This document shows, one piece after another, positions 16,458 to 52,905 of a DNA stretch of 64,000 nt. Both the position numbers and the translations under genes were made by a program. The stretch is from contig JAQVWG010000003.1 in the NCBI GenBank assembly GCA_028698585.1, positions 3,518 to 67,517 of the forward strand, given 5' to 3'. Source of the DNA: Clostridia bacterium. Its GTDB lineage: Bacteria > Bacillota > Clostridia > Christensenellales > CAG-314. Below the pieces are notes generated by a model that saw only the letters and a list, made by a program, of their open reading frames with translations, ran no database searches and was not told where the DNA came from. The first letter of the stretch is position 1; every line of letters begins with the position of its first letter.

Positions 16458-16964
16458 ATGAACAGATTCGCGAAAACAATTCTATGTTGTTATAATGCTA
16501 TCCCTACGATGGTCAAAAAAGTTGATAGACTGGTCTATAGCAAGGCAGTTAAGTCGCACAGTAACAGTTATGGTCATGGAAACACGCTATACCAGATGGA
16601 CAGAATTGTGTCCCTGCTCAATGTTAAGAACGACTTATTGCTTATGCGCAAGATTACCGATAAAGCGCTTGCTTGTCTGCCTGTTAAACAGAGAGTGTTG
16701 ATAGTTAGCAAGTTTTTCCATAACATGACGTGCGAGCAAATACAACAGGCAGTCAATGTGTCCATGCGCACGCTGTTCAGACAGATTAATGCCAGCGTCA
16801 ATTCGTTCGCTAGCGCACTGATTATAGAGGGATATGATAGAGAGTGGTTTATCTCTACCTATCTGTCCGAGCGGTGGATTAAACATATCTATAACACTTG
16901 TTGTGAAAAACAAGGTTTATGCGTACAACTACCACAAGAGCAGAGCATATTGGAAAGTGCATAA
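16458..16964 (+). CDS. Sigma-70 region-4-like HTH protein (candidate phage-type late regulator)
   Basis: 168 aa. The segment LPVKQRVLIVSKFFHNMTCEQIQQAVNVSMRTLFRQINASVNSF has the layout of sigma region 4 / ArpU- or DUF1492-type regulators. No region 2 is visible. Confidence 0.45.
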   Translation: MNRFAKTILCCYNAIPTMVKKVDRLVYSKAVKSHSNSYGHGNTLYQMDRIVSLLNVKNDLLLMRKITDKALACLPVKQRVLIVSKFFHNMTCEQIQQAVNVSMRTLFRQINASVNSFASALIIEGYDREWFISTYLSERWIKHIYNTCCEKQGLCVQLPQEQSILESA

Positions 16965-17092
16965 GATAACTCCTGTTAATAGTAAGCGTGAATTAACTGT
17001 GCAATAGATTGGGTTAGAGATAACGGTGCGTTAATTAATAAATGCTCATATAGTTGACAATATCTTAAGTGTGCAGACACATTGGTAAGATT

Positions 17093-17555
17093 ATCTCATG
17101 TACGTATGTGTGTATAACAACGTATGACAAGGAGATGGCGTGTGATTGGTCAATAATTGTGCGAATGGTGTAGACACCTTATGCTAGATAGGTATTGCAA
17201 TGGTAATCTATATCTCATGTACGTATGTGCGTATAACAACGTATGACAAGGAGTTGGCGCGATGTCTGTTCAATAATTGTGCGAATGGTGTAGACACCTT
17301 ATGCTAGATAGGTATGGCAATGGTAATCTATATCTCATGTACGTATGTGCTTATAACAAAGCATGACAAGGAGTTGGCGTGTGATTGGTCAATAATTATG
17401 CGAATGGTGTAGACACCTTATGCTAGATAGGTATGGCAATGGTAATCTATATCTCATGTACGTATGTGCGTGTAACAATGCATGACAAGGAGTTGGCGTG
17501 TGATTGGTCAATAATTATGCGAATGGTGTAGACACCTTATGCTAGATAGGTATGG
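17093..17555. repeat. Tandem array of about 3.9 copies of a 119-120-bp unit (unit starts at 17093, 17212, 17332, 17451)
   Basis: Read directly. Each unit carries the inverted repeat GGTGTagACACC and a small hairpin whose arms vary but stay pairable. A degenerate partial copy precedes 17093. Confidence 0.95.
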
Positions 17556-17716
17556 AATAATTATTGTTACGGTTGGTGTATATCAAATGGTGGGAGTAAA
17601 CCGCATAACTAGTGTTTTTTAGAGTGAATAGCCCAGTGGTACTGTTATTGATAGAAGTGCGCAAATTGTACTATTAAGTACAAGAATCGTGCGTAACCGT
17701 CAAATGGCAGTATCTA

Positions 17717-18538
17717 TTACAGATAGTCGTCGAAGTATCTAGGCTGATTGGTAGTTGTGTCGGTAGACACTCCGTATCTATCGATTGAGGATTTATCCTT
17801 AATGGCACGTTTACGAGTAGGAATGAACACGACTGCCAGTATCACTAATAAAGGCAAAGTTATCAATAGAATTAACGTTGCCTGAACTGGATTGGACAAG
17901 TCGGCAGATAGTATGCTATTACTGTCTGTCTGGTCGGTGTTAGTTGCCGGAGTGTCGGGTTCATCAATGATAACCACAGCAGGTTGAGTGAGAGGGGTGG
18001 GGTGTAGACTGAATACGGGAACTGTAACTGCTGTTGCCTGACAGTAGCCTAAGTATCCTTGGAAATATACATAATACCACTCGTTGTACTGGGTTATTGC
18101 CTTACCATAGTAAGACATCGACTGACCGCTTACTGCCGTTACAAAGGCTGTGAGGGCTTCATTCGGAGATGGATATATCTTACAGCCGTGATTACCTGCT
18201 TGAATAAGTACCTTAGGGTAGAGTGGAATCAACGGTTTTTCGTAGACTTCTTGTACGCTGTCAATCAGAACGTATCCATTAAGTTTGGCAAAGTTAGCCT
18301 GTTCGTTCAGCAGTTCTACCTGATAGAATCCACCACTTATACCTACCACAGTAAGATAGTACGTGGGAATCAATGCGAACAGTTTACTAGTATTATCCGG
18401 CGCAGAGTAGAAGTACACATTGGTGTTCTCAATGCGAACATAGGGTGGAACCTGCTCTGTCTGTGCGTAGGCACTAAAGGGCAGGTAACACATAACGATT
18501 ATTGATAACATTGCACATACAACAGTTTTCATACGCAC
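17717..18538 (-). CDS. Secreted, C-terminally anchored protein with SH3b-like domains
   Basis: 273 aa. Signal peptide ends at ..FSAYAQTE. Two segments have an SH3b-like pattern (VRIENTNVYFYSAPDNTSKLFALIPTYYLTVVG..GGFYQVEL). TM is ATLILLITLPLLVILAVVFIP, followed by a cytoplasmic tail. Confidence 0.6.
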   Translation of the reverse strand: MRMKTVVCAMLSIIVMCYLPFSAYAQTEQVPPYVRIENTNVYFYSAPDNTSKLFALIPTYYLTVVGISGGFYQVELLNEQANFAKLNGYVLIDSVQEVYEKPLIPLYPKVLIQAGNHGCKIYPSPNEALTAFVTAVSGQSMSYYGKAITQYNEWYYVYFQGYLGYCQATAVTVPVFSLHPTPLTQPAVVIIDEPDTPATNTDQTDSNSILSADLSNPVQATLILLITLPLLVILAVVFIPTRKRAIKDKSSIDRYGVSTDTTTNQPRYFDDYL

Positions 18539-20851: not shown

Positions 20852-22676
20852 CAATGATAAGTTCTACGGTGATTTAGTGCAAGAAATCAAAGAAGACTTT
20901 GAGCAACGACAACGGCAAAGGAGAGCATACGAGAATAGCTGGCAACTCAATATCAATTTTGTCTCAGGCAATCAATACTGCTCTGTTACGCCTCAAGGTG
21001 ATATTATTGAACAGGACAAGTATTATTACTGGCAGGAAAAACAAGTGTATAACCACATAGCGCCCATTGTGGAGACTAGAATGGCACGCCTGTCGCACAT
21101 TAGACCCAAGATGACTGTTAGGCCATTCTCCAACACAGATGAGGATATAGAGTCCAGTAAACTGGCAACCAAAATATTATGCGCGACAATGGAGTCTGTT
21201 AACTATGACAGGCTAATAGACAGTGCAACTGCGTGGAGCGAAGTTACGGGGACAGCATTCTATAAGGTAACGTGGGAGAGCCAATATGGACAAACACTTC
21301 TTGAGGATGGTAAGGAGTACAAGACAGGCGACGTAAGTATAACTGTATGTTCACCATTCGAGATATATCCTGACAGTAATGTGGCAGAGGACATAGAACA
21401 ATGCAACTCAATTATCCACGCTAAGGCGTATGATATCGCAGACATCAAGAGTATATGGGGTGTGGAAGTGCCAGGAGAAGATATCAAAGTGTTCGGTTAT
21501 GATGGTTCTGCATGTAATGGTGGATACGGATACAATTCTGCTACGCCGTTCGTGTGCGATGAGGTCAAAAAAAATCATGCAATCGTGATAGAAAGGTACA
21601 CTAAACCCTCACAGCAATACCCCAATGGGCAATTAACTATTATAGCTAGGGACAGCATACTGTATCACGGAGAGTTGCCATACATTGAGCACGGCATAAT
21701 TTATCCGTTCATTAAACAGGTATGCCATAGACAAGTAGGTTGCTTCTGGGGAAGTAGTATTGTGGAGCGCATTATTCCGCTTCAACGCAGTTATAACGCT
21801 ATCAAAAATAGGAAAAACGAGTTTCTTTCACGCATAGCAATGGGTGTGCTGACTGTGGAGGACGGCTCAGTAGATACAGACAATCTAGAGGAGGAGGGAC
21901 TATCCCCTGGAAAAGTGATTATATACCGGCAGGGTGCTAGTAAGCCTGCATTACTGGACGCAGGCAACGTGCCTAACGACTTCATGTATGAAGAGGATAG
22001 ATTGCTCAATGAGTTCATAGTCATATCAGGTGTCAGCGAACTAGCACGAAACTCCACTACTCCATCGCAGATAACCAGTGGCGTCGCACTGCAACTACTT
22101 ATTGAGCAGGACGAACAGCGCTTATCATCTACTGCTAATAATATCAAGATTGCCATTAAACAGATTGGTAAACACATAATCAATCTATATCGCCAGTATG
22201 CAACTGCACTAAGGCTAGCAAAGACTGTTAGCAATGACGGTAGTGTTGAGATATACTACTTTACTAACGCTGACCTAAGAAGCGATGATATCGTTTTCGA
22301 AACGGAGAACGAGATAACTGATAGCCCTGCCAACAGGCGAAATATCGTGATGGAACTATTGCGTTCAGGGTTATTACAGGACGAAAACGGTAAGATGAGA
22401 GAGAGCACCAAGGTCAAGGTAATGGAGATGTTGGGATTAGGCAACTGGGAGCATGCTAAGGATATCGAGAGCCTACACCTAGCTAGAGCAGACAAGGAGA
22501 ATCTAGAGATGACAACGGCTCAAGTGCCACTTACTGTCGATAACCATAACCTACATATTGATAGCCACATTGCTTATGTAATTGACATTAATAATCAGTT
22601 AAACGACAAGAGAAAGAGTGTGATTCTGGAGCATATAGCTATGCATAAGCAGTTGGCACAAGGGGGTATTGTATGA
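20844..22676 (+). CDS. Portal protein
   Basis: 610 aa. Start overlaps the upstream stop. Sits in the expected position between terminase and scaffold/capsid. N-terminal blocks are portal-like by recollection (SWQLNINFVSGNQY, NHIAPIVETRMARL). Confidence 0.75.
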   Translation: MTNNDKFYGDLVQEIKEDFEQRQRQRRAYENSWQLNINFVSGNQYCSVTPQGDIIEQDKYYYWQEKQVYNHIAPIVETRMARLSHIRPKMTVRPFSNTDEDIESSKLATKILCATMESVNYDRLIDSATAWSEVTGTAFYKVTWESQYGQTLLEDGKEYKTGDVSITVCSPFEIYPDSNVAEDIEQCNSIIHAKAYDIADIKSIWGVEVPGEDIKVFGYDGSACNGGYGYNSATPFVCDEVKKNHAIVIERYTKPSQQYPNGQLTIIARDSILYHGELPYIEHGIIYPFIKQVCHRQVGCFWGSSIVERIIPLQRSYNAIKNRKNEFLSRIAMGVLTVEDGSVDTDNLEEEGLSPGKVIIYRQGASKPALLDAGNVPNDFMYEEDRLLNEFIVISGVSELARNSTTPSQITSGVALQLLIEQDEQRLSSTANNIKIAIKQIGKHIINLYRQYATALRLAKTVSNDGSVEIYYFTNADLRSDDIVFETENEITDSPANRRNIVMELLRSGLLQDENGKMRESTKVKVMEMLGLGNWEHAKDIESLHLARADKENLEMTTAQVPLTVDNHNLHIDSHIAYVIDINNQLNDKRKSVILEHIAMHKQLAQGGIV

Positions 22677-23923
22677 AAAACGGCAAGTTCAAGAGTCATA
22701 CAGACCTAGTCAACAGTTATGATAATCTACAGAAGGCATTTACACGCAAGTGCCAGTATGTTAAGCAGTTGAGTAAACTGTTAACAGATGCAGATATACC
22801 GTTGCCGACCAATAGGAATAACCAGTTGAATATTGACAGCGATGTCGGCGCAGACTGTGGTGAAGGTGTGCATATTGGTGATGTTGATGTGTCTTGGCCT
22901 GTACATTATGACAACACCTTTGATAACGACAACACCGTTACTTGTGCAACCGAAGATACTGGAGGTGTTGTCGAACACAATCCAATAGATAATTTAATGC
23001 AAGCGCTGGACGAAAAGGATATTGCTACTATCAATAATGGTATAGACGCAGATGGTGACACTGTAGCTCGAAATAAGAAAAAAGGTATTACTGCGATCAA
23101 TTGCGATATAAACACAGACAGTAACTCTGTCGCTCAAGCACAAGAAATAGGTTGTACTTCAACTAGTATTGATACAGACGCAGACAGTGACGCCGTGGTA
23201 CAGGAGCAGGAGAAAAAGTGTTTAGCTACAATCAATAGTGATTCAGAAGCAGATAGTAACTCTGTCGCTCAAGCACAGGAAATAGGTTGCACTTCAACTA
23301 GTATTGATACAGACGCAGACAGTGACGCCGTGGTACACGAGCAGGAGAAGAAGTGTTTAGCTACAATCCATAGTGATATAGGCTCAGATAGTTACTCTGG
23401 CGTGCAGAATCAGGGAGCGACAGATTACACTGCAACTAATACCAATACAAACACGGATAGTAATGACGCAACGCAAAAGGGACAATCTTCGGTCGATACA
23501 CACATAGGCGCCTCGGCCGAAGTTGATTATATAAGTGGTACAAGCAGTCTGCCACCACGAGAGATGGACAAACAATCATTCTATAACAAGTATCCACTGG
23601 CAACATTGTTCAGCGATCAAATTGAAGCAGTATTGGACAACCCTGATGTTTCATTCTGCAATGACCGTAAAGAAGCGTTGCTCAATGTGTGTTGCGACAA
23701 GACTTTGCTGTATCATGCGCTGGCTGGCGACAAGGATTTTTGCGATTATATATGTAACAACGAACAGATTAAGCGCAGAATACTAGCTGATTACCTGATA
23801 GCGCTACAAAACAATCGTGTCGCACCGACAATTAAATCGGGGGCAAAGTTGCCACTATGTCCACCTCAAAGGCCCACAACTCTTAATGAAGCGAATAGAA
23901 TGGTCAAGCATTATATCGGCTAG
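22673..23923 (+). CDS. Scaffolding-like protein with an acidic repeat-containing centre
   Basis: 416 aa with an ATGA overlap to the portal gene. The N-terminus FKSHTDLVNSYDNLQKAFTRKCQ resembles scaffold N-termini. The D/S/T-rich middle contains a 45-aa tandem repeat. Positioned directly before the capsid gene. Confidence 0.55.
   Translation: MKNGKFKSHTDLVNSYDNLQKAFTRKCQYVKQLSKLLTDADIPLPTNRNNQLNIDSDVGADCGEGVHIGDVDVSWPVHYDNTFDNDNTVTCATEDTGGVVEHNPIDNLMQALDEKDIATINNGIDADGDTVARNKKKGITAINCDINTDSNSVAQAQEIGCTSTSIDTDADSDAVVQEQEKKCLATINSDSEADSNSVAQAQEIGCTSTSIDTDADSDAVVHEQEKKCLATIHSDIGSDSYSGVQNQGATDYTATNTNTNTDSNDATQKGQSSVDTHIGASAEVDYISGTSSLPPREMDKQSFYNKYPLATLFSDQIEAVLDNPDVSFCNDRKEALLNVCCDKTLLYHALAGDKDFCDYICNNEQIKRRILADYLIALQNNRVAPTIKSGAKLPLCPPQRPTTLNEANRMVKHYIG
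23113..23376 (+). repeat. In-frame tandem repeat, 2 x 135 bp (45 aa), inside the scaffold-like CDS
   Basis: ..DSNSVAQAQEIGCTSTSIDTDADSDAVV(Q/H)EQEKKCLATI(N/H)SD.. occurs twice. At the nucleotide level there are only a few substitutions. Confidence 0.9.
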
Positions 23924-34759: not shown

Positions 34760-37081
34760 ATGAAAAACAAGCAGAACCAATCAACCAATAGAGACACCAC
34801 GAATGCCGTTAATACAGTAGCTGTGAACAATCAAATTAAGGGTAACAATCACGGTGGTAGGTATAATAATAGTAATAAGCCTAATGACAATAAGTCAAGT
34901 GGTAATAAGCCCACACAGAATGCAGCTCATAACAGTCAATCGACCAACAATCAAGCTGTAGACAATAACATGGCTAAGGGCAACATACCATACGGTAAGC
35001 CCACTACTAATTCCAACAAGAGTAATACAGACAAGCTAATTGTTAACACGAGTAATGCCGATAAGCCTCGCACTGGTAAAGGTAACGTAAATACACCCAA
35101 TGCGAACAAGAGTAGCACAGGCAAGCCTAGTGTAGATAAGGGCAACAATGGATTAAAGGGTAACAAGAGCAAGGGTGGCAAGTCCGTTAATAATTTAACC
35201 ACTACTCTTGCTAGCTCTAATAACAACAACAAGGGCACTAACCAGCAACGCAATCCCGAACATAGAGCAGGGAATGATAATAATACTAACCATATCAATG
35301 CTTCGAATCCAATCAATAACTCGTCTGTTGACGATCGTTCAATCAATGTTGACAGTTCACCCAAGAAGGGCTCTAATCGGCATGTAGACACTAAAGGACG
35401 TCTCAAGATAGCATTTCTCGGCGGACTGGGCGAGATAGGCAAGAACATGATGTTGTTCGAGTACGAACAAGATATAGTCATAGTAGACTGTGGTGTATCT
35501 TTTCCAACAGGAGACATGCCAGGCGTGGACTTGGTTATCCCTGACATAACTTATCTAAAAGAGAATCAACATAAGTTGCACGGACTGCTTCTCACACACG
35601 GACATGAGGACCATATAGGCGCAGTGCCGTTTATTGTTAAGGATATAGCCAACGAGAGTAAACTAGACATATATGGCAGCAAACTGACACTGGCACTTGT
35701 GGATAATAAACTGATTGAACACAACTGCATGGACAAGGTAGAGCGTCATATAGTGGATGATTCGCAAGTAATACGCCTAGGAGTGTTCGAGATAGAGTTC
35801 TTGAGAGTAACGCACTCTGTGGCTGGCTCGCTGGCAATCGTGATTAAGACGCCCGTTGGCAAGGTTTTTCTCACCGGCGACTTCAAGATTGACCACACTC
35901 CCATACACTCTCCCCCTATGAATCTGGCGAGGATAGCTCAACTAGGTGATGAGGGGATACAATTACTGCTTTGCGACAGCACTAACGTAGAAGTAGAGGG
36001 GTACACCTTGTCGGAAAGGTGCGTCAGTCAGCAACTGGCCGAGATTTTTGCCGACAACGTAGGCAAGCGCATAATAGTCGCCACATTCTCGTCCAATGTG
36101 GACAGAGTTCAGGAAGTGTTCCAACTGGCAATTAAATATAATCGCAAGGTAGCAATATCCGGTCGCAGTATGGCCAACACTATTGAGACAGCCTCCAATG
36201 CAGGATATATGTCGTACGACAAGAGTATTATAGTGCCTAATAATCAGATTGAGAAAGTAGATGACGGCAACCTCGTCATACTTTCAACCGGTAGTCAAGG
36301 TGAACCTTTCTCTGCCCTTACACGTATGGCAAGTGGTGAGTTCAATAAGGTCAAAATAACCTCTAACGACACCATAGTCATATCTGCATCACCCATACCG
36401 GGGAACGAAAAAGATATCAATAGGGTAATCAATAACCTGTTCAGGCTAGGCGCCAACGTTATATATAACCAAATACAAGCAGTGCACGTGTCCGGACACG
36501 CTCATGTTGAGGAACTTAAACTACTGCACGCACTTGTCAAACCTAAGTTTTTTGTCCCTGTGCACGGCGAGTATAGACACCTTGTAATTCACCGCAATTT
36601 GGCAATGTCAATGGGCATGAAGGACAAGAACATACTGATTGCCGAGAACGGCGACCTAGTTGAGCTATCCAGTAAAGGCATAGCTATTAAGGGTAAGGTG
36701 CCAAGTGGTAACGTGTATATTGATGGGCTGGGTGTAGGAGATGTGGGTAGCGAGATACTGCACGATAGACTCGCCTTGAGCGAGGATGGCATAATCATAG
36801 TCGTGTGTGGCGTAGAAAACGGCACAGTAACGGCTAGACCACAAGTGTTCAGTCGTGGATGCCTATATGCAGGCAATCAACGGACGGAGCAGACCATAGA
36901 GGAAATCAAAGATATAGCAATGGGTGTGCTTGCTAATGCAGACTTGATTAAACTAGATTTACAGTCCATTAAGACAGCCATAACTAAACAGATTAGATCA
37001 TACTACCGTAAGACTTATCAGCGTTTCCCCATGGTGATAGCCATAGTTATGTCGTCGGCGCTTGACGAGAGAGAGTCATAG
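34760..37081 (+). CDS. rnj: Ribonuclease J with a roughly 213-aa low-complexity N-terminal extension
   Basis: 773 aa. AAGGAAG RBS 5 nt before the ATG at 34760. The catalytic part starts near 35400 (KIAFLGGLGEIGKNM, HGHEDHIG, beta-CASP region). Residues 1 to about 213 are N/K/S/T/G-rich. Confidence 0.9.
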   Translation: MKNKQNQSTNRDTTNAVNTVAVNNQIKGNNHGGRYNNSNKPNDNKSSGNKPTQNAAHNSQSTNNQAVDNNMAKGNIPYGKPTTNSNKSNTDKLIVNTSNADKPRTGKGNVNTPNANKSSTGKPSVDKGNNGLKGNKSKGGKSVNNLTTTLASSNNNNKGTNQQRNPEHRAGNDNNTNHINASNPINNSSVDDRSINVDSSPKKGSNRHVDTKGRLKIAFLGGLGEIGKNMMLFEYEQDIVIVDCGVSFPTGDMPGVDLVIPDITYLKENQHKLHGLLLTHGHEDHIGAVPFIVKDIANESKLDIYGSKLTLALVDNKLIEHNCMDKVERHIVDDSQVIRLGVFEIEFLRVTHSVAGSLAIVIKTPVGKVFLTGDFKIDHTPIHSPPMNLARIAQLGDEGIQLLLCDSTNVEVEGYTLSERCVSQQLAEIFADNVGKRIIVATFSSNVDRVQEVFQLAIKYNRKVAISGRSMANTIETASNAGYMSYDKSIIVPNNQIEKVDDGNLVILSTGSQGEPFSALTRMASGEFNKVKITSNDTIVISASPIPGNEKDINRVINNLFRLGANVIYNQIQAVHVSGHAHVEELKLLHALVKPKFFVPVHGEYRHLVIHRNLAMSMGMKDKNILIAENGDLVELSSKGIAIKGKVPSGNVYIDGLGVGDVGSEILHDRLALSEDGIIIVVCGVENGTVTARPQVFSRGCLYAGNQRTEQTIEEIKDIAMGVLANADLIKLDLQSIKTAITKQIRSYYRKTYQRFPMVIAIVMSSALDERES

Positions 37082-37085
37082 TTCA

Positions 37086-37688
37086 ATGGACTGCGTACAG
37101 GCATTAGCCGACCTAAGAGTATCGGCAAGACAACGCAATATCCCCATTATTCGTGAGCAATCTGCCAGACTACTCGAAAGCATTGTAAAACAATGTAAGC
37201 CTAACAGAATACTTGAGATAGGCACTGCGTACGGATACTCCACCTCCCTTATGTTACTAGCCAGTCCTAATGCACGCATTAATACCATAGATATTAGCGA
37301 TAGCAGTCAATGTATAGCTAAACAATCGTTAGACAGATACGGTTTAACAGACAGAGCCAACTTCATTTGTGGTGACAGTCAATCGATAGTGCCTATGCTG
37401 ACAGGTCAATATGACTTGATATTCATGGACGGCGCTAAGTCGCAGTATATCAGTCTACTACCTTATCTACTTGACTTACTGTGTGTGGGTGGTACACTCG
37501 TGTGCGATAATGTCAACTATATGGGATTACCACAGATTGTCGATAGTCTGCCTAATAATCATAAGCATATTACCATAGCACGCAATATGGCCAACTTTAT
37601 CAAGACTATCAAGGCAGACGTTAGACTGCTCACAGACATATATCAAGTAGAGGACGGACTGTCGGTCAGCAAGAAACTGACCGATTAA
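37086..37688 (+). CDS. Class I SAM-dependent O-methyltransferase (YrrM/TrmR-like)
   Basis: SAM-binding motif ILEIGTAYGYST and acidic FMDGAK. Start placed at the ATG 37086 just after the rnj stop (ORF-track 37062 overlaps rnj). A U32 peptidase lies downstream, as in the B. subtilis yrrMNO arrangement. Confidence 0.75.
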   Translation: MDCVQALADLRVSARQRNIPIIREQSARLLESIVKQCKPNRILEIGTAYGYSTSLMLLASPNARINTIDISDSSQCIAKQSLDRYGLTDRANFICGDSQSIVPMLTGQYDLIFMDGAKSQYISLLPYLLDLLCVGGTLVCDNVNYMGLPQIVDSLPNNHKHITIARNMANFIKTIKADVRLLTDIYQVEDGLSVSKKLTD

Positions 37689-37997
37689 GAAGATACCCAT
37701 TAATGACTGACTGTAGACATAAGGCGTGATTGCAACTAACTGATTATAGTATCAAGTACTTAAGTATAAATAGTTATTCGACTTATTATTGACTGTACAT
37801 TAAGCATGTGATAAAGGCAGTTATAGATACGCTTAACCTATATAGCGCAATCATGACATCATATTAAATGTGAATCTATGCTAATATAATCACGAACTAT
37901 GCAAGTGTATGGATAACCATTGCATTGAATGACTAACGATTAATCAACTGCACGCAGTAAGTACATTGAATGGCGATACAGCTAAGGCGATACTAAT

Positions 37998-38389
37998 ATA
38001 GCGCAATTATGACACTAGACAATCATTAGAAAACCACAGTTAATCTATGAATATCAATATAGATAACAAGAATTAAGGAAACCGACCGTTAATCTATGAA
38101 TAACAATAGTACCCACAAAATAGCGCAAAAATGACACTAGACAATCATTAGGAAACCACAGTTAATCTATGAATATCAATATAGATAACAAGAATTAAGG
38201 AAACCGACCGTTAATCTATGAAAAACAATAGTACCCACAAAATAGCGCAAATATGACACTAGACAATAATTAGGAAACCGACCGTTAATCTATGAATAAC
38301 AATAGTACCTACAAAATAGCGCAAATATGACACTAGACAATCATTAGGAAACCGACCGTTAATCTATGAATAACAATAGTACCCACAAA
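37998..38389 (+). repeat. Tandem array of 4 units (122, 122, 74, 74 bp), each ending with the start codon and first 8 codons of the downstream U32 gene
   Basis: Unit starts (atagcgcaa) are at 37998, 38120, 38242 and 38316. ATGs are at 38096, 38218, 38292 and the real one at 38366. A degenerate older copy lies near 37843-37900. Confidence 0.95.
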
Positions 38390-39610
38390 AGAATAGAATT
38401 ACTTGCTCCCTGTGGCGATTGGGAAAAACTACTTACAGCACTACACTTCGGCGCAGACGCTGTGTACCTCGCCGGTAAACAACTAGGACTGAGGGCATAC
38501 TCTGGCAACTTTACAGATGAGCAGATAGCCTCAGCCTGCACTCTAGCACACTCAATGGGGAGAAGGGTGTATGTAACAGTCAACATTTTTGCCAGAAACA
38601 ATCACTTTGACACACTTGACGCATATTTGACTTATCTGTACAACTGCGGTGTGGACGCCATAATAGTATCTGACGCAGGGATAATTGCACGAGCGCATGA
38701 AGTAGTGCCAAACCTACCCATTCACATGTCTACTCAAGCCAATATCACTAACAGCAGAGCAGTCAATTTCTGGGCATGTCAAGGTGTTACAAGGGTAGTG
38801 CTAGCCAGAGAATTATCGCTGAGTGAGATTGCCGACATCGTTGCTGACAGCAATGCCGAAATTGAGACATTCGTACATGGGGCTATGTGTATGAGTTATT
38901 CGGGCAGATGTCTGCTCTCTAACTACTTTACTGGTCGCAAGAGCAACATGGGCGAGTGCGCACAGCCCTGTCGGTGGGAGTATGCACTCACACAGGCAAC
39001 GGTATATCCAACTGATAAGACTGACCAACCCATGATAGTGGAGGAGGACTGCGAGGGTACTTATCTGTTTAATAGCAGAGACCTCAATATGCTCTCATAT
39101 ATCGATAGACTTATTCAAGCTGGCATAACCTCTCTCAAGATTGAGGGCAGGATGAAGTCGCCATATTACGTAGCTACGGTAGTTAATGCTTATAGAAGGG
39201 CAATTGACAGTTATTACGACAACGATTGCCATTATCGGTTAGACAAGACACTACTAGCAGACCTAGATAAAGCCAGCCACAGACTTTATACTACTGGATT
39301 CTATTTCGACCAGACGGACAGGCAGAATAATGAGAGTTCGAGGGCTGTTGGCGAGAGTACGTTTATTGCTGTGGTGCTGTCATATAATAATGGACAAGCA
39401 ATCGTTGAGATGCGCAACAGGTTCTGCGTGGGGGATAGGTTAGAGATACTGTCCAGCGGTGACAGTTTCAATAAGAGTTTCGTGGTGGATAGCATAACAA
39501 TGCAGGGTATGAGTGTAACTGACGCTAAGGTAGTGCAACAAGAATACTGCATTAACTGTCCATATCCCGTACAGCCGTTAGATATATTGCGTACGGGCAA
39601 TAAGGACTAG
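38366..39610 (+). CDS. Peptidase U32 family protein (YrrO/TrhP-like)
   Basis: 414 aa. N-terminus ELLAPCGDWEKLLTALHFGADAVYLAG, plus the Cys-rich block GAMCMSYSGRCLLS...ECAQPCR typical of the U32 family. Confidence 0.85.
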   Translation: MNNNSTHKRIELLAPCGDWEKLLTALHFGADAVYLAGKQLGLRAYSGNFTDEQIASACTLAHSMGRRVYVTVNIFARNNHFDTLDAYLTYLYNCGVDAIIVSDAGIIARAHEVVPNLPIHMSTQANITNSRAVNFWACQGVTRVVLARELSLSEIADIVADSNAEIETFVHGAMCMSYSGRCLLSNYFTGRKSNMGECAQPCRWEYALTQATVYPTDKTDQPMIVEEDCEGTYLFNSRDLNMLSYIDRLIQAGITSLKIEGRMKSPYYVATVVNAYRRAIDSYYDNDCHYRLDKTLLADLDKASHRLYTTGFYFDQTDRQNNESSRAVGESTFIAVVLSYNNGQAIVEMRNRFCVGDRLEILSSGDSFNKSFVVDSITMQGMSVTDAKVVQQEYCINCPYPVQPLDILRTGNKD

Positions 39611-39882: not shown

Positions 39883-42345
39883 ATGAAAAAGTTAACTACT
39901 ATATTGCTAGTTATTGTCTTGCTTGCAACCACTCTACTGGGTGTTACGGCATGCGATGGCAGTAAGAATGTGTATAATGTTACTCTAGACTTCAATGGAG
40001 GCACAGATACCGCAGGCAATACAACCAAGGTATTCAAGGATGTCAAGCAGGTTAATGCTGAGGACGTACCAGAGATATCTAGATTCGGCTATACATTCGT
40101 GGGATGGTATTTCTCTAGTTTTATTGACAAGGATGATGTCGATCCAATCACGATGCCATTTATCCCATCTGTTGAGAATCAATACAATTATGTGTTACTC
40201 GCCAAGTGGGAAATGATAGATGGTTATGCCAGTGTGTCCTTTACGGTCAACGGTGGCGAATCCACCAATGGCACGTCATACAGTAGTAAGGTTACTCTTA
40301 TTAGCAGTTTTGATATAGCACAATATACTGGCGAGAATGCACCCAGCAAGACAGGTTATACATTCGACGGGTGGTACACAGACAGCACACTTAATGTCCC
40401 ATACAGCACATCAGTACTTGTTAGTAAGGGTTCTGCAACACTTTATGCCAAGTACACCCCAGTTGATAATATCAAGGTTACCGTCCAGTCACATATAGAA
40501 GATGATGATACAGTGGTAAATGTCGGCACATTCACAGGCACAGTTGGCACAACTCTAGCCGAGCCCGGTATGCCTACAAGGGACGGATATTACTTTGCCG
40601 GTTGGTACGCTGACGCAGAGCTGACAAAAGTGTATACATTCGGCGTGTTCCCGACAACTGACACCACAGTATATATCAAGTGGATTGGCGAAGAAGATTA
40701 TACATCAGGACTTGAGTATGAGTTGAACGGCGACGGCTCAGGATACATCCTTACTGGCCTTGGCGATGTAACGGCTACAACCATATATGTACCATATAAC
40801 TATGCACCAGAAGGTGGTTCAGAGAAACCAGTAGTAGAAGTGAGTGCAACTGCATTTACTAATGAGGACGACAAGGCTGTGGCTAGCACAATCAAAGTGC
40901 TGTATCTGCCTAATACAATTGTCAAAATCAATGCTGGCGCATTCAGTGGAATGAAGTCATTGAACAAGATGAGACTGCCATTTGTGGGCACAGAAGACGG
41001 CGCTAGCGGTATTAACTCGGTGTTCGGAGTGATATTCGGCACCACTCAGTTTGACGGCACAACGGCAATAGCACAGAGATATAATACCGACTCCAATGAT
41101 GTGGTCTGCAATTATATACCATTATCACTGGTATCTGTAGATATAACGAGTCAAACGACCATACCTAACTATGCATTCTATAACTGTGAGGATATAGTCA
41201 ATATTACTCTGTGTAATAATGCTCTCAGTATAGGCACATATGCATTCTGGGAGTGTAGCGCGCTGACATCGTTTAAGATGCCCAGCACTGTTACCACACT
41301 GGGAACACAAGCCTTCAGTGGCTGTACAGCACTCAAGACAGTTACCTTAAGTGACGAGTTAACCAGAATTAATGAGAAAACGTTCTATATGTGTATTGCA
41401 TTGACATCAGTTCAAATGGGCGCCAAAGTGCAGTCTATTGAGAGCGAAGCATTCGCATTCTGCACTGCATTAGTATCAGTTAACTACAACGGCACACCGA
41501 TATTGCAGACCATCAGCCGTAGAGCATTCTATTACTGTAAATTATTGACCACATTTAAGCTAGGTGGATTAACTAGTCTAATATCAATAGGCGATAGTGC
41601 ATTCGAGGAATGCGTTGCATATTACAGTGGTGACAAGCAGGAAATACGCAAACTTCAAACTGTTAACATTACATTACTTCCCGATTCGCTGACTACTATC
41701 GGCAACAGAGCATTCGCTAACTGTGACGCATTATATGCTGTCGAGTTCGTCCATACCAATAGCACCCTAGTATCAATAGGTAATGAAGCATTCTTTAGTT
41801 GTAATAAACTATATAATATCAATCTATCCCAGTTAACTGCTCTGACAACCATAGGCACTAGTGCGTTCAAGGACTGCGTAGCACTATTCGGCACCGACAG
41901 TATTACACTATACGGCGTAGCAACCAAGAGTTTTACCGGTGTGATTCTACCTAACTGTCTAACTAGTGTGGGAAATAACCTGTTTTCCGGTTGTATTGCA
42001 CTTGCTACAGTACAGTTCCAGGCTGGTTCTGTGGGTCTAGCTGTAAGCGATAGCATGTTCTATACATGCACAGTGTTAACTAATGTTGACCTTAATGATG
42101 TTGTAGCAATAGGCGAACATGCATTCTCATCTTGTCCCGCACTTAAGACTCTGGTAGTCCCGACCACCGTGACTACAATGAGTGCTAATGCACTAAAGGG
42201 CGCAATATGTAAGGTATTCTCTGGTGCTACAGCGCAACCTGCAGGGTGGGTTGAAGGCTGGAATGCTGATAATCTTATCGTTTACTGGGCTGATGAATGG
42301 AGCATGGTAGCAGGAGTGCCCACTGTCAACGCAACTGGTGAATAG
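39883..42345 (+). CDS. Surface lipoprotein with Listeria-Bacteroides-type repeats and BspA-type leucine-rich repeats
   Basis: 820 aa with lipobox LLGVTAC. Contains three GYTF.GWY-type repeats (GYTFVGWY, GYTFDGWYTD, GYYFAGWYAD), followed by many units of about 23-25 aa with the form ..I(G)..AF..C..L..V. Confidence 0.8.
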   Translation: MKKLTTILLVIVLLATTLLGVTACDGSKNVYNVTLDFNGGTDTAGNTTKVFKDVKQVNAEDVPEISRFGYTFVGWYFSSFIDKDDVDPITMPFIPSVENQYNYVLLAKWEMIDGYASVSFTVNGGESTNGTSYSSKVTLISSFDIAQYTGENAPSKTGYTFDGWYTDSTLNVPYSTSVLVSKGSATLYAKYTPVDNIKVTVQSHIEDDDTVVNVGTFTGTVGTTLAEPGMPTRDGYYFAGWYADAELTKVYTFGVFPTTDTTVYIKWIGEEDYTSGLEYELNGDGSGYILTGLGDVTATTIYVPYNYAPEGGSEKPVVEVSATAFTNEDDKAVASTIKVLYLPNTIVKINAGAFSGMKSLNKMRLPFVGTEDGASGINSVFGVIFGTTQFDGTTAIAQRYNTDSNDVVCNYIPLSLVSVDITSQTTIPNYAFYNCEDIVNITLCNNALSIGTYAFWECSALTSFKMPSTVTTLGTQAFSGCTALKTVTLSDELTRINEKTFYMCIALTSVQMGAKVQSIESEAFAFCTALVSVNYNGTPILQTISRRAFYYCKLLTTFKLGGLTSLISIGDSAFEECVAYYSGDKQEIRKLQTVNITLLPDSLTTIGNRAFANCDALYAVEFVHTNSTLVSIGNEAFFSCNKLYNINLSQLTALTTIGTSAFKDCVALFGTDSITLYGVATKSFTGVILPNCLTSVGNNLFSGCIALATVQFQAGSVGLAVSDSMFYTCTVLTNVDLNDVVAIGEHAFSSCPALKTLVVPTTVTTMSANALKGAICKVFSGATAQPAGWVEGWNADNLIVYWADEWSMVAGVPTVNATGE

Positions 42346-42432: not shown

Positions 42433-42778
42433 TTGGCAAGTATAGACTATAAGCCGAGTTCTGTATTAAGCAGTCATCTATCTAGACAAATTGTTACCAA
42501 TATGTTCGAGCGAATCTCATCGTGGTCGCCGGGCTAGCGATAATTCCACACTTCTTGCACCGAGTGGGGTTTACATATTACTCTCTGTCGCCAGAGAGTC
42601 TGTGGTCTCTTACACCTCATTTCCACCCTTACAGTTAATATAACTTGCGGTTTATTTCTGTTGCACTGTCCTTGAAGTCGCCTTCACAGGGTATTACCCT
42701 GCACTCTGCCCTTCGGTGCTCGGACTTTCCTCGTGCATGTTATTGCAACGCACGCGACTGCCTGTCTATCTTGCACGA
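42433..42778 (-). ncRNA. rnpB: RNase P RNA, bacterial type A
   Basis: The minus strand reads ..GACAGGCAGUCGCG..GAGGAAAGUCCGAGC..GGGCAGAGUGCAGGGUAAUACCCUG..AGUGCAACAGAAA..GUAAGGGUG..GUAAACCCCAC..AGAUGACUG..ACAGAACUCGGCUUAU, matching the universally conserved CR-I to CR-V blocks. P1 pairs GCAAGAUAGAC with GUCUAUACUUGC. End positions are accurate to about +/-5 nt. Confidence 0.92.
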
Positions 42779-52646: not shown

Positions 52647-52905
52647 TAAGTAGTACAGGGCTATAATGGACAAAACCATAGGTTATACAACTATATCTAA
52701 TATCAATAAGTATCAACTGCAATGATTGTAATTGAAAGTAATCTGAGTTCAAGCAGTAGCAGGGCTATAATGGACAAAACCATAGGTTATACAACTATAT
52801 CTAATATCAATAAGTATCAACTGCAATGATTGTAATTGAATGTAATCTGAGTTCAAGCAGTAGCAGGGCTATAATGGACAAAACCATAGGTTATACAACT
52901 ATATC
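52647..52905 (+). repeat. Tandem array of about 2.5 copies of a 104-bp unit containing the yigZ start codon and first 10-11 codons
   Basis: ATGGACAAAACCATAGGTTATACAACTATATC occurs at 52666, 52770 and 52874. Only the last copy continues into the gene. Confidence 0.95.

Follow-up and report, generated by a model that had tools for sequence, protein, structure and literature searches.

Tandem copies of a translation-initiation region between a methyltransferase gene and a U32 peptidase-family gene in a Clostridia bacterium: a likely lineage-specific minisatellite

Results

A four-unit array carries copies of the U32 start

We analysed a 64-kb stretch of DNA from a Clostridia bacterium (contig JAQVWG010000003.1 of GenBank assembly GCA_028698585.1; the whole stretch is called the window, and its first letter is position 1), in which a gene for a TrmR/YrrM-like O-methyltransferase is followed on the same strand by a gene for a TrhP-like protein of the U32 peptidase family. 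From the methyltransferase stop (37688) to the U32 ATG (38366) the two genes are 677 bp apart, and this spacer consists of 309 bp of non-repeat sequence and 368 bp of a tandem array. Tandem Repeats Finder (TRF), a repeat search and alignment across the window place the array at 37998-38389, where four head-to-tail units of 122, 122, 74 and 74 bp follow one another. An earlier reading of the locus from the letters alone (the sequence-only reading) had claimed this succession of units, and both TRF and an in-register alignment bear it out. TRF reports two overlapping repeats, one with a period of 122 bp in 2.5 copies (37998-38304) and one with a period of 74 bp in 2.7 copies (38188-38390), each with 95% matches and no indels. 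The same reading had described the 677-bp spacer as repeat-filled, which holds for its length and for the 368 bp of the array but not for the other 309 bp.

The 3' end of each unit is the translation-initiation region of the U32 gene together with its first 8 codons. The 74-bp unit is composed of a 38-nt 5' block (ATAGCGCAAATATGACACTAGACAATCATTAGGAAACC) and a 36-nt 3' block (GACCGTTAATCTATGAATAACAATAGTACCCACAAA), the latter containing the U32 start codon and the 8 codons. With up to 2 mismatches allowed, each block has four copies in the array and none in the rest of the window, against a chance expectation of 0. The statement that every unit ends in the same 27-mer is approximately right, since AAT is replaced by AAA in unit 2 and CCCAC by CCTAC in unit 3.

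Within each 122-bp unit a nested 48-nt sub-unit lies between the two blocks. A global alignment against the 74-nt unit pairs the ends of the sub-unit with those of the unit (about 20/23 and 11/12 positions) and leaves the middle of the unit without a counterpart; by this alignment, the sub-unit is an older, decayed and internally deleted copy of the 74-nt unit. Identity between units is 96-100% and the nested sub-units agree at 48/48 positions, which indicates that the duplication events were recent. Exact repeats in the array are no longer than 70 nt (the longest begins at 38031 and 38153), and every unit has private variants. Coordinates of all features are collected in Table 1.

Table 1. 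Positions of the genes, repeat units, mini-ORFs (short open reading frames) and further arrays in the window
Feature	Position	Strand	Remarks
O-methyltransferase gene (Methyltransf_3, TrmR/YrrM-like)	37086..37688	+	Pfam PF01596, E 6.7e-23
Non-repeat spacer, 309 bp	37689..37997	+	absent from relatives; no other copy in window
19-nt seed, ATATAGCGCAATCATGACA	37840..37858	+	18/19 match to 5' edge of unit 1
Unit 1, 122 bp	37998..38119	+	38-nt block, 48-nt nested sub-unit, 36-nt initiation-region block
Unit 2, 122 bp	38120..38241	+	4 differences from unit 1
Unit 3, 74 bp	38242..38315	+	private variants A at 38268 and T at 38311
Unit 4, 74 bp	38316..38389	+	holds authentic U32 ATG (38366) and codons 1-8
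Nested 48-nt sub-unit	38036..38083 and 38158..38205	+	copies 48/48 identical
Nested mini-ORF, MNINIDNKN then stop	38047..38076 and 38169..38198	+	9 codons; one per long unit
Decoy mini-ORF 1, MNNNSTHKIAQK then stop	38096..38134	+	12 codons
Decoy mini-ORF 2, MKNNSTHKIAQI then stop	38218..38256	+	12 codons
Decoy mini-ORF 3, MNNNSTYKIAQI then stop	38292..38330	+	12 codons; stop 35 nt before real ATG
U32 peptidase-family gene, TrhP-like	38366..39610	+	414 aa, intact; PF01136, E 1e-94, and PF16325
119 nt x3.9 array	17092..17555	.	between convergent open reading frames 16458-16964 (+) and 17717-18538 (-)
135 nt (45 codons) x2.1 array	23115..23399	+	in frame inside open reading frame 22673-23923
104 nt x2.5 array	52648..52905	+	tyrS-yigZ junction; same anatomy as U32 array

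Decoy starts upstream of the U32 gene

Because the start codon lies inside the unit, each of the first three units opens a truncated version of the U32 reading frame, and ATG 38366 is the only start in the array that opens the 414-aa open reading frame (ORF). The three 12-codon copies, the sole continuation from 38366 and the nested mini-ORF of the two long units had all been noticed in the sequence-only reading; the translations are correct throughout. The mini-ORFs stop 19-35 nt upstream of the next ATG. All copies have the same start context from at least -30 to +24, and decoy 1 differs only upstream of AGGAAACC. Three substitutions fall in the coding parts of the decoys and 3/3 alter the amino acid (N2K, H7Y and K12I), so the peptide gives no sign of constraint.

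A GGAGG-type Shine-Dalgarno site precedes the start of most genes in the window by 6-10 nt. The U32 start has only an AGGA about 16 nt upstream, in an A-rich, G-poor and unstructured region, and the start of yigZ, elsewhere in the window, likewise has no canonical Shine-Dalgarno site. Given the common -30 to +24 context, whatever initiates at the real start should act equally at the decoys. Translation of the decoys is probable, at an efficiency, low or high, close to that of U32, and may bring incidental ribosome cover to the spacer RNA and some reinitiation into the real start; any net effect of the mini-ORFs on the expression of U32 is likely to be small and to vary with copy number. The suggestion that the decoys titrate ribosomes conflicts with what is established about bacterial initiation, in which ribosomes bind each start site directly and are not intercepted by upstream starts.

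Independent assemblies break where the array predicts

The four-unit structure predicts where short-read assemblies should break, and two independent ones of the same strain do so exactly there. A Logan contig built at k=31 (L002, SRR22315503) matches the window at 100% identity from a point upstream of the RNase J gene to 38060, where the contig and the first 31-mer common to units 1 and 2 both end. The contig passes the left side of the private variant of unit 1 without a branch, and this one-sided branching is predicted by a repeat and not by the bubble of a single-nucleotide polymorphism, which supports a real repeat. On the other side of the array, a JGI contig (L001) starts within unit 3, shows the private variant of that unit (CCTAC, the T at 38311) and runs through unit 4 into the gene. 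Since the longest exact repeat is 70 nt and private variants mark the units, their order and number are resolvable by ordinary assembly. Exact-protein look-ups for U32 and for the methyltransferase returned one contig each, both stopping at the array. A scan of metagenomes with a 24-nt unit probe found the same JGI contig only, that is, the same locus, and the unit has no other copy in the window.

The spacer is tight in related genomes

A methyltransferase homologue lies directly upstream of U32 in 30 of the 83 Clostridia U32 loci that we fetched, with a spacer of -50 to +104 bp and a median of -4 (overlapping stop and start). This agrees with the claim that the array splits a trmR/trhP-type pair which is normally tight. 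In the three closest relatives the gene calls give spacers of 128, 10 and 72 bp, and these loci share the order serC/serA, RNase J, methyltransferase, U32 and a BspA-type leucine-rich-repeat (LRR) protein. Because the spacer is tight in relatives, the 677-bp spacer is a derived, lineage-specific state that breaks an ancestrally coupled pair.

The organism belongs to a sparsely sampled Clostridia lineage. Its best species-representative genomes are 53% identical in U32, none closer being present in the genome collection, and the best database proteins, those of the three closest loci just described, reach 64, 61 and 59%.

A control scan with the same TRF settings (arrays counted at period >=50 and score >=300) found 0 arrays in the 83 other Clostridia U32 loci (788 kb), and TRF found none in the three closest relatives (48 kb). 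A check proposed in the sequence-only reading, whether other U32 or trmR loci carry similar arrays, thus came out negative for these 83 loci. A TRF match near the U32 start in one locus (L006) was rejected as a similar array, being A-rich low complexity.

The non-repeat part of the spacer was also said to hold a degenerate older copy of the unit at 37843-37900. In local alignments against shuffled sequences this shrinks to the 19-nt seed (Table 1), whose score was reached by 4/500 shuffles; apart from the seed, 37689-37997 resembles the unit no better than shuffled sequence does. These alignments rule out decayed older copies as the filling of the whole spacer. BLAST of the 309 bp against the window returned nothing beyond the segment itself.

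Signals sought in and around the array

A simple consensus scan, whose reach does not extend to non-sigma-70 promoters, found no sigma-70-like -35/-10 pair in the part of the repeated unit that precedes the start codons. The sole promoter match that touches the array (38370-38399, 9 of 12 positions) starts after the U32 ATG and extends into unique coding sequence. A tandem promoter array was rejected on this result, and the earlier proposal of multiple promoters fails by the same scan. No intrinsic terminator was found on the + strand between the methyltransferase and U32 genes. The predicted structure of RNA from 37998-38420 (423 nt, the whole array) is no better than that of shuffles (z -0.10). 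Rfam gave no match over 37600-38500, either at the gathering threshold or at E<=1, and a riboswitch or other curated structured RNA was rejected as a candidate on that ground. A regulatory leader peptide or attenuator was likewise rejected, given the fold z of -0.10, the want of a + strand terminator in the spacer and the fact that relatives lack the upstream ORF (uORF).

The array has several features of a minisatellite or variable-number tandem repeat (VNTR) of the exact tandem repeat (ETR) type: its tandem units of 74-122 bp are 95-100% identical, occur at one locus and are absent from related orthologous sites. A dispersed or mobile family of the MIRU or MITE kind was considered and dismissed, because BLAST of each unit against the window returned nothing beyond its own array. 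Membership of the MIRUs was rejected on two further counts, namely that the units of the three intergenic arrays of the window are unrelated and each unique in it, and that the mini-ORFs do not overlap the flanking starts or stops, the first unit lying 309 bp after the methyltransferase stop.

Further arrays in the same window

Three further large-period arrays bring the total in the window to four, with units that are mutually unrelated (Table 1). The array at the tyrS-yigZ junction has the same anatomy as that at U32. Its 104-nt unit consists of an upstream region and ATGGACAAAACCATAGGTTATACAACTATATC, the first 10 codons of the YigZ/IMPACT gene; 19-codon decoys (MDKTIGYTTISNINKYQLQ, then stop) begin at 52666 and 52770 and the true yigZ start is at 52874, and the mechanical ORF call over-extends the gene to 52826. 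Copy number at this junction appears to be variable. An ENA MEGAHIT contig (L087, ERZ27250894) is 100% identical to the window over 7.1 kb, minus exactly one 104-nt unit, and the window lacks 59 of its 141-mers. Exact repeats in the yigZ array reach 81 nt at most. Together with the 59 novel 141-mers, this led us to judge assembly collapse an unlikely source of the shorter allele, and a real polymorphism is the parsimonious explanation of the one-unit difference. By analogy with yigZ, copy-number variability of the U32 array is plausible.

In each 119-nt unit a strong Shine-Dalgarno site stands before a start-stop (AAGGAG-N5-GTGTGA), and the array ends 17 nt into a possible 27-aa hydrophobic ORF (17539-17622). 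An RNA gene was rejected for this array, for which only a meaningless sub-threshold snoRNA match was obtained. The 135-nt array lies in an ORF that has no match in Pfam or NCBIfam. Other contigs break inside the yigZ and 119-nt arrays, among them an independent contig (L089) in the latter.

Four arrays in 64 kb amount to about 60 large-period minisatellites per Mb, compared with none in 788 kb of related Clostridia loci (L003-L085). Possible causes of this richness are repair defects, population size and assembly bias in the controls.

Neighbouring genes

The methyltransferase gene has an alternative TTG start at 37062; the 200-aa product from ATG 37086 is the form called in another assembly. 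Its best PDB match is B. subtilis YrrM/TrmR (5zw3, E 8.6e-20), and it also matches 8k1f, a tRNA 5-hydroxyuridine methyltransferase. For the U32 protein the best NCBIfam match is TrhP (E 1.7e-101) at 340 bits, below the 534-bit equivalog cutoff, with UbiU second, and a sequence search returned no solved homologue.

The RNase J protein (34760-35400 region) bears an N-terminal extension of about 200 aa rich in Asn, Lys, Ser and Thr that is missing from relatives, and is 773 aa long against 571 and 556 aa in them. Within this extension lies a decayed DNA repeat, suggestive of in-frame duplications that affected the gene's 5' end long ago. Directly downstream of U32 lies a gene for a large surface protein of the BspA-type LRR / Listeria-Bacteroides-repeat kind (39883-42345). 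It is conserved in the lineage and its length varies widely between relatives (820, 922 and 1383 aa; window, L083 and L084 compared). Just beyond it is a class A RNase P RNA (42433-42773, - strand, 261 bits), the sole Rfam match at gathering threshold in the window.

Discussion

Our analysis of the spacer between the methyltransferase and U32 genes leads us to regard the array as probably a recent and lineage-specific VNTR, that is, a minisatellite of the exact tandem repeat type, with the mini-ORFs as by-products. A 74-bp segment reaching from -50 to +24 of the U32 start codon was duplicated in tandem, after which one copy decayed with loss of its middle and became the 48-nt sub-unit. A further duplication affected the 122-bp compound unit and another the 74-bp unit, which makes four or more events at this one site. 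These duplications may have come about by slipped-strand mispairing or by unequal recombination, and arrays typically keep growing once either process has repeats to work on.

Such duplications would have been tolerated since the gene stays intact behind the last copy and the earlier copies stop after 12 codons. The mini-ORFs would then be structural by-products of the gene's own N-terminus that keep ribosomes on an otherwise untranslated spacer. At a junction as tight as the ancestral one, any tolerated duplication of about 100 bp would have to span the downstream start or the upstream stop, and by this constraint two start-spanning arrays at two co-directional junctions are unremarkable. The root cause would be a genome-wide propensity to form and retain tandem duplications of about 100 bp, rather than an operon-specific regulatory design. 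The arrays between convergent genes and inside a coding region show no regulatory logic in common with the others, and the most economical view is that tandem duplications of ~100 bp arise and persist in this genome unusually often. The idea of the array as a dedicated U32 switch fits poorly with three unrelated arrays in the same window, one of them, at yigZ, anatomically identical.

Several observations weigh against the minisatellite explanation. The start codon is part of the unit in both arrays at co-directional junctions, and U32 lacks a canonical Shine-Dalgarno site at its start, which leaves room for a compensatory or tuning role. The unit number at U32 is known from one assembly, and no second assembly spans the array. 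The control loci are mostly short-read metagenome-assembled genomes, which under-represent repeats. Finally, the duplications do not account for the 309 bp of non-repeat spacer. With respect to the first of these points, the start-including arrays number two, and at n=2 an enrichment is indistinguishable from the ~50% expected if junction duplications that spare one intact copy are tolerated.

An alternative that we consider unlikely, and yet worth setting out, is that the array is a selected tuner of expression. Copies of the start site would form a reinitiation relay that replaces a lost stop/start coupling: after each 12-codon mini-ORF ribosomes would re-initiate 35 nt downstream, translation of the spacer would prevent polarity, and U32 output would rise with the number of units, as in a copy-number rheostat. 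The typical -4 overlap at the ancestral junction does imply translational coupling, the U32 start has only an AGGA about 16 nt away among genes that mostly have a GGAGG-type site at 6-10 nt, and the gap between a mini-ORF stop and the following ATG is 19-35 nt. There are documented cases of termination-reinitiation and of short "delivery" ORFs (PMC12548453), the length of the mycobacterial ETR-F repeat is positively correlated with fpg1 expression (PMC2734929), and the second start-including array, at yigZ, also precedes a start that has no canonical Shine-Dalgarno site. However, the same genome builds arrays where such a logic fails, between convergent genes and inside a coding region, and neutral tolerance would also fit the two cases in which it could apply. 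For efficient reinitiation a gap of 35 nt is long, and the array is shared by none of the relatives examined.

A broader form of this idea, which we put forward as no better than a long shot, is that the lineage systematically amplifies initiation regions (the start and the first 8-10 codons) at co-directional junctions. The products would be heritable translational rheostats of variable copy number that act through a reinitiation relay and through anti-polarity, with U32 and yigZ as two instances in 64 kb.

Tandem promoters, by which a promoter in each unit would multiply transcription initiation upstream of U32, are very improbable. The region is AT-rich (GC 0.31-0.33) and, read from the sequence, every unit has ATGACA and TAGACA hexamers that resemble a -35 element. 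The consensus scan nevertheless found no -35/-10 pair in the unit upstream of the start codons, and by eye no TAnnnT-type hexamer at a suitable spacing exceeds 3/6 matches. Additionally, transcription from upstream could read through into U32, as no terminator follows the methyltransferase gene.

Still less probable is an assembly artefact, in which mis-assembly of strain variants inflated a single unit. The source is a metagenome-type assembly and the public short-read contigs do stop at the array, but they stop where four units predict at k=31, with one-sided branching, and the passage from unit 3 to unit 4 recurs with its private variant in the independent JGI assembly. Nor does concatenation of haplotypes yield a nested 122/74 architecture, and a longest exact repeat of 70 nt with private variants in every unit leaves the structure resolvable.

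A structured regulatory RNA or a leader-peptide attenuator that senses a charged tRNA or a metabolite would suit a site upstream of a tRNA-modification gene and short ORFs that begin Asn-rich, but it can hardly be credited for an RNA with a fold z of -0.10, no Rfam match at E<=1 and no terminator-like hairpin, and for a peptide that is the gene's own N-terminus and is lacking in relatives.

As it stands, the U32 array is of limited importance, and the richness of this genome in arrays is the more noteworthy point: about 60 large-period minisatellites per Mb point to unusual replication, repair or population genetics. The locus is nonetheless a clear example of how a tandem duplication that spans a start codon may be tolerated and then grow, so that a coupled pair becomes two genes separated by decoy starts. 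In practical terms, the array could serve as a strain-typing marker for a rarely sampled organism, and arrays of this kind explain why short-read assemblies fragment at these loci. They also carry a warning for annotation, in that the true start is the last copy and an ORF such as that of yigZ is easily over-extended (to 52826). Should the arrays prove to tune expression, their natural unit-number alleles would offer a simple system for the study of reinitiation and of initiation independent of a Shine-Dalgarno site in Clostridia.

Comparison with known systems

The gene pair itself resembles the trmR-trhP2-trhP1 (yrrM-yrrN-yrrO) genes for (m)o5U34 tRNA modification in B. subtilis (PMC6599085, PMC6158493), where a Methyltransf_3 O-methyltransferase also stands beside a U32 protein with a C-terminal domain; that the three form one operon, as the sequence-only reading stated, is documented (PMC6599085). 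In contrast to B. subtilis, the Clostridia locus has a single U32 gene in place of the yrrN/yrrO pair, its U32 protein scores below the TrhP equivalog cutoff, and it is known from sequence alone.

The mini-ORFs recall bacterial uORFs and termination-reinitiation, in which short upstream ORFs on the same transcript can promote or modulate downstream initiation (PMC12548453; PMC8092293). Regulatory uORFs, however, are single, conserved and usually tied to RNA structure or to a stalling peptide, whereas those described here are multiple, recent, unconserved and unstructured.

Operon-internal tandem units of 40-100 bp with small ORFs co-directional with the flanking genes are also found among the MIRUs (PMC12548453), which are thought to be tolerated since the ORF keeps translation flowing into the downstream gene (PMC12548453). 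MIRUs are dispersed and apparently mobile, with a sequence common to their loci and with ORFs that overlap the start or stop of the flanking genes (-4 spacing); here, in contrast, the unit is unique to each locus and the stops lie 19-35 nt from the next ATG.

The closest precedent is ETR-F/VNTR3239 at the rnc-fpg1 junction of M. tuberculosis. This junction, 1-54 bp in other mycobacteria, is widened to 279-358 bp by five core copies, which make up two long and two short compound units and extend as far as the fpg1 start codon, and the copy number varies among strains and correlates positively with expression (PMC2734929). The likeness extends to a lineage-specific array that widens a tight co-directional junction (from a median of -4 to 677 bp in the present case), to long and short compound units with nested sub-repeats (79 and 55 bp in ETR-F, 122 and 74 bp at U32), and to an array that abuts the downstream start codon with a possible small ORF inside (PMC2734929). 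The two differ in phylum and GC content, and variation and the effect on expression were measured for ETR-F, while the U32 array is described from its sequence. Furthermore, ETR-F stops at the start codon, whereas the U32 unit enters the coding sequence by 24 nt and thereby recreates the start and 8 codons. Overall, these comparisons indicate that the U32 array belongs to the intergenic VNTR/ETR class, a known kind of element, with the twist that the start site lies inside the unit.

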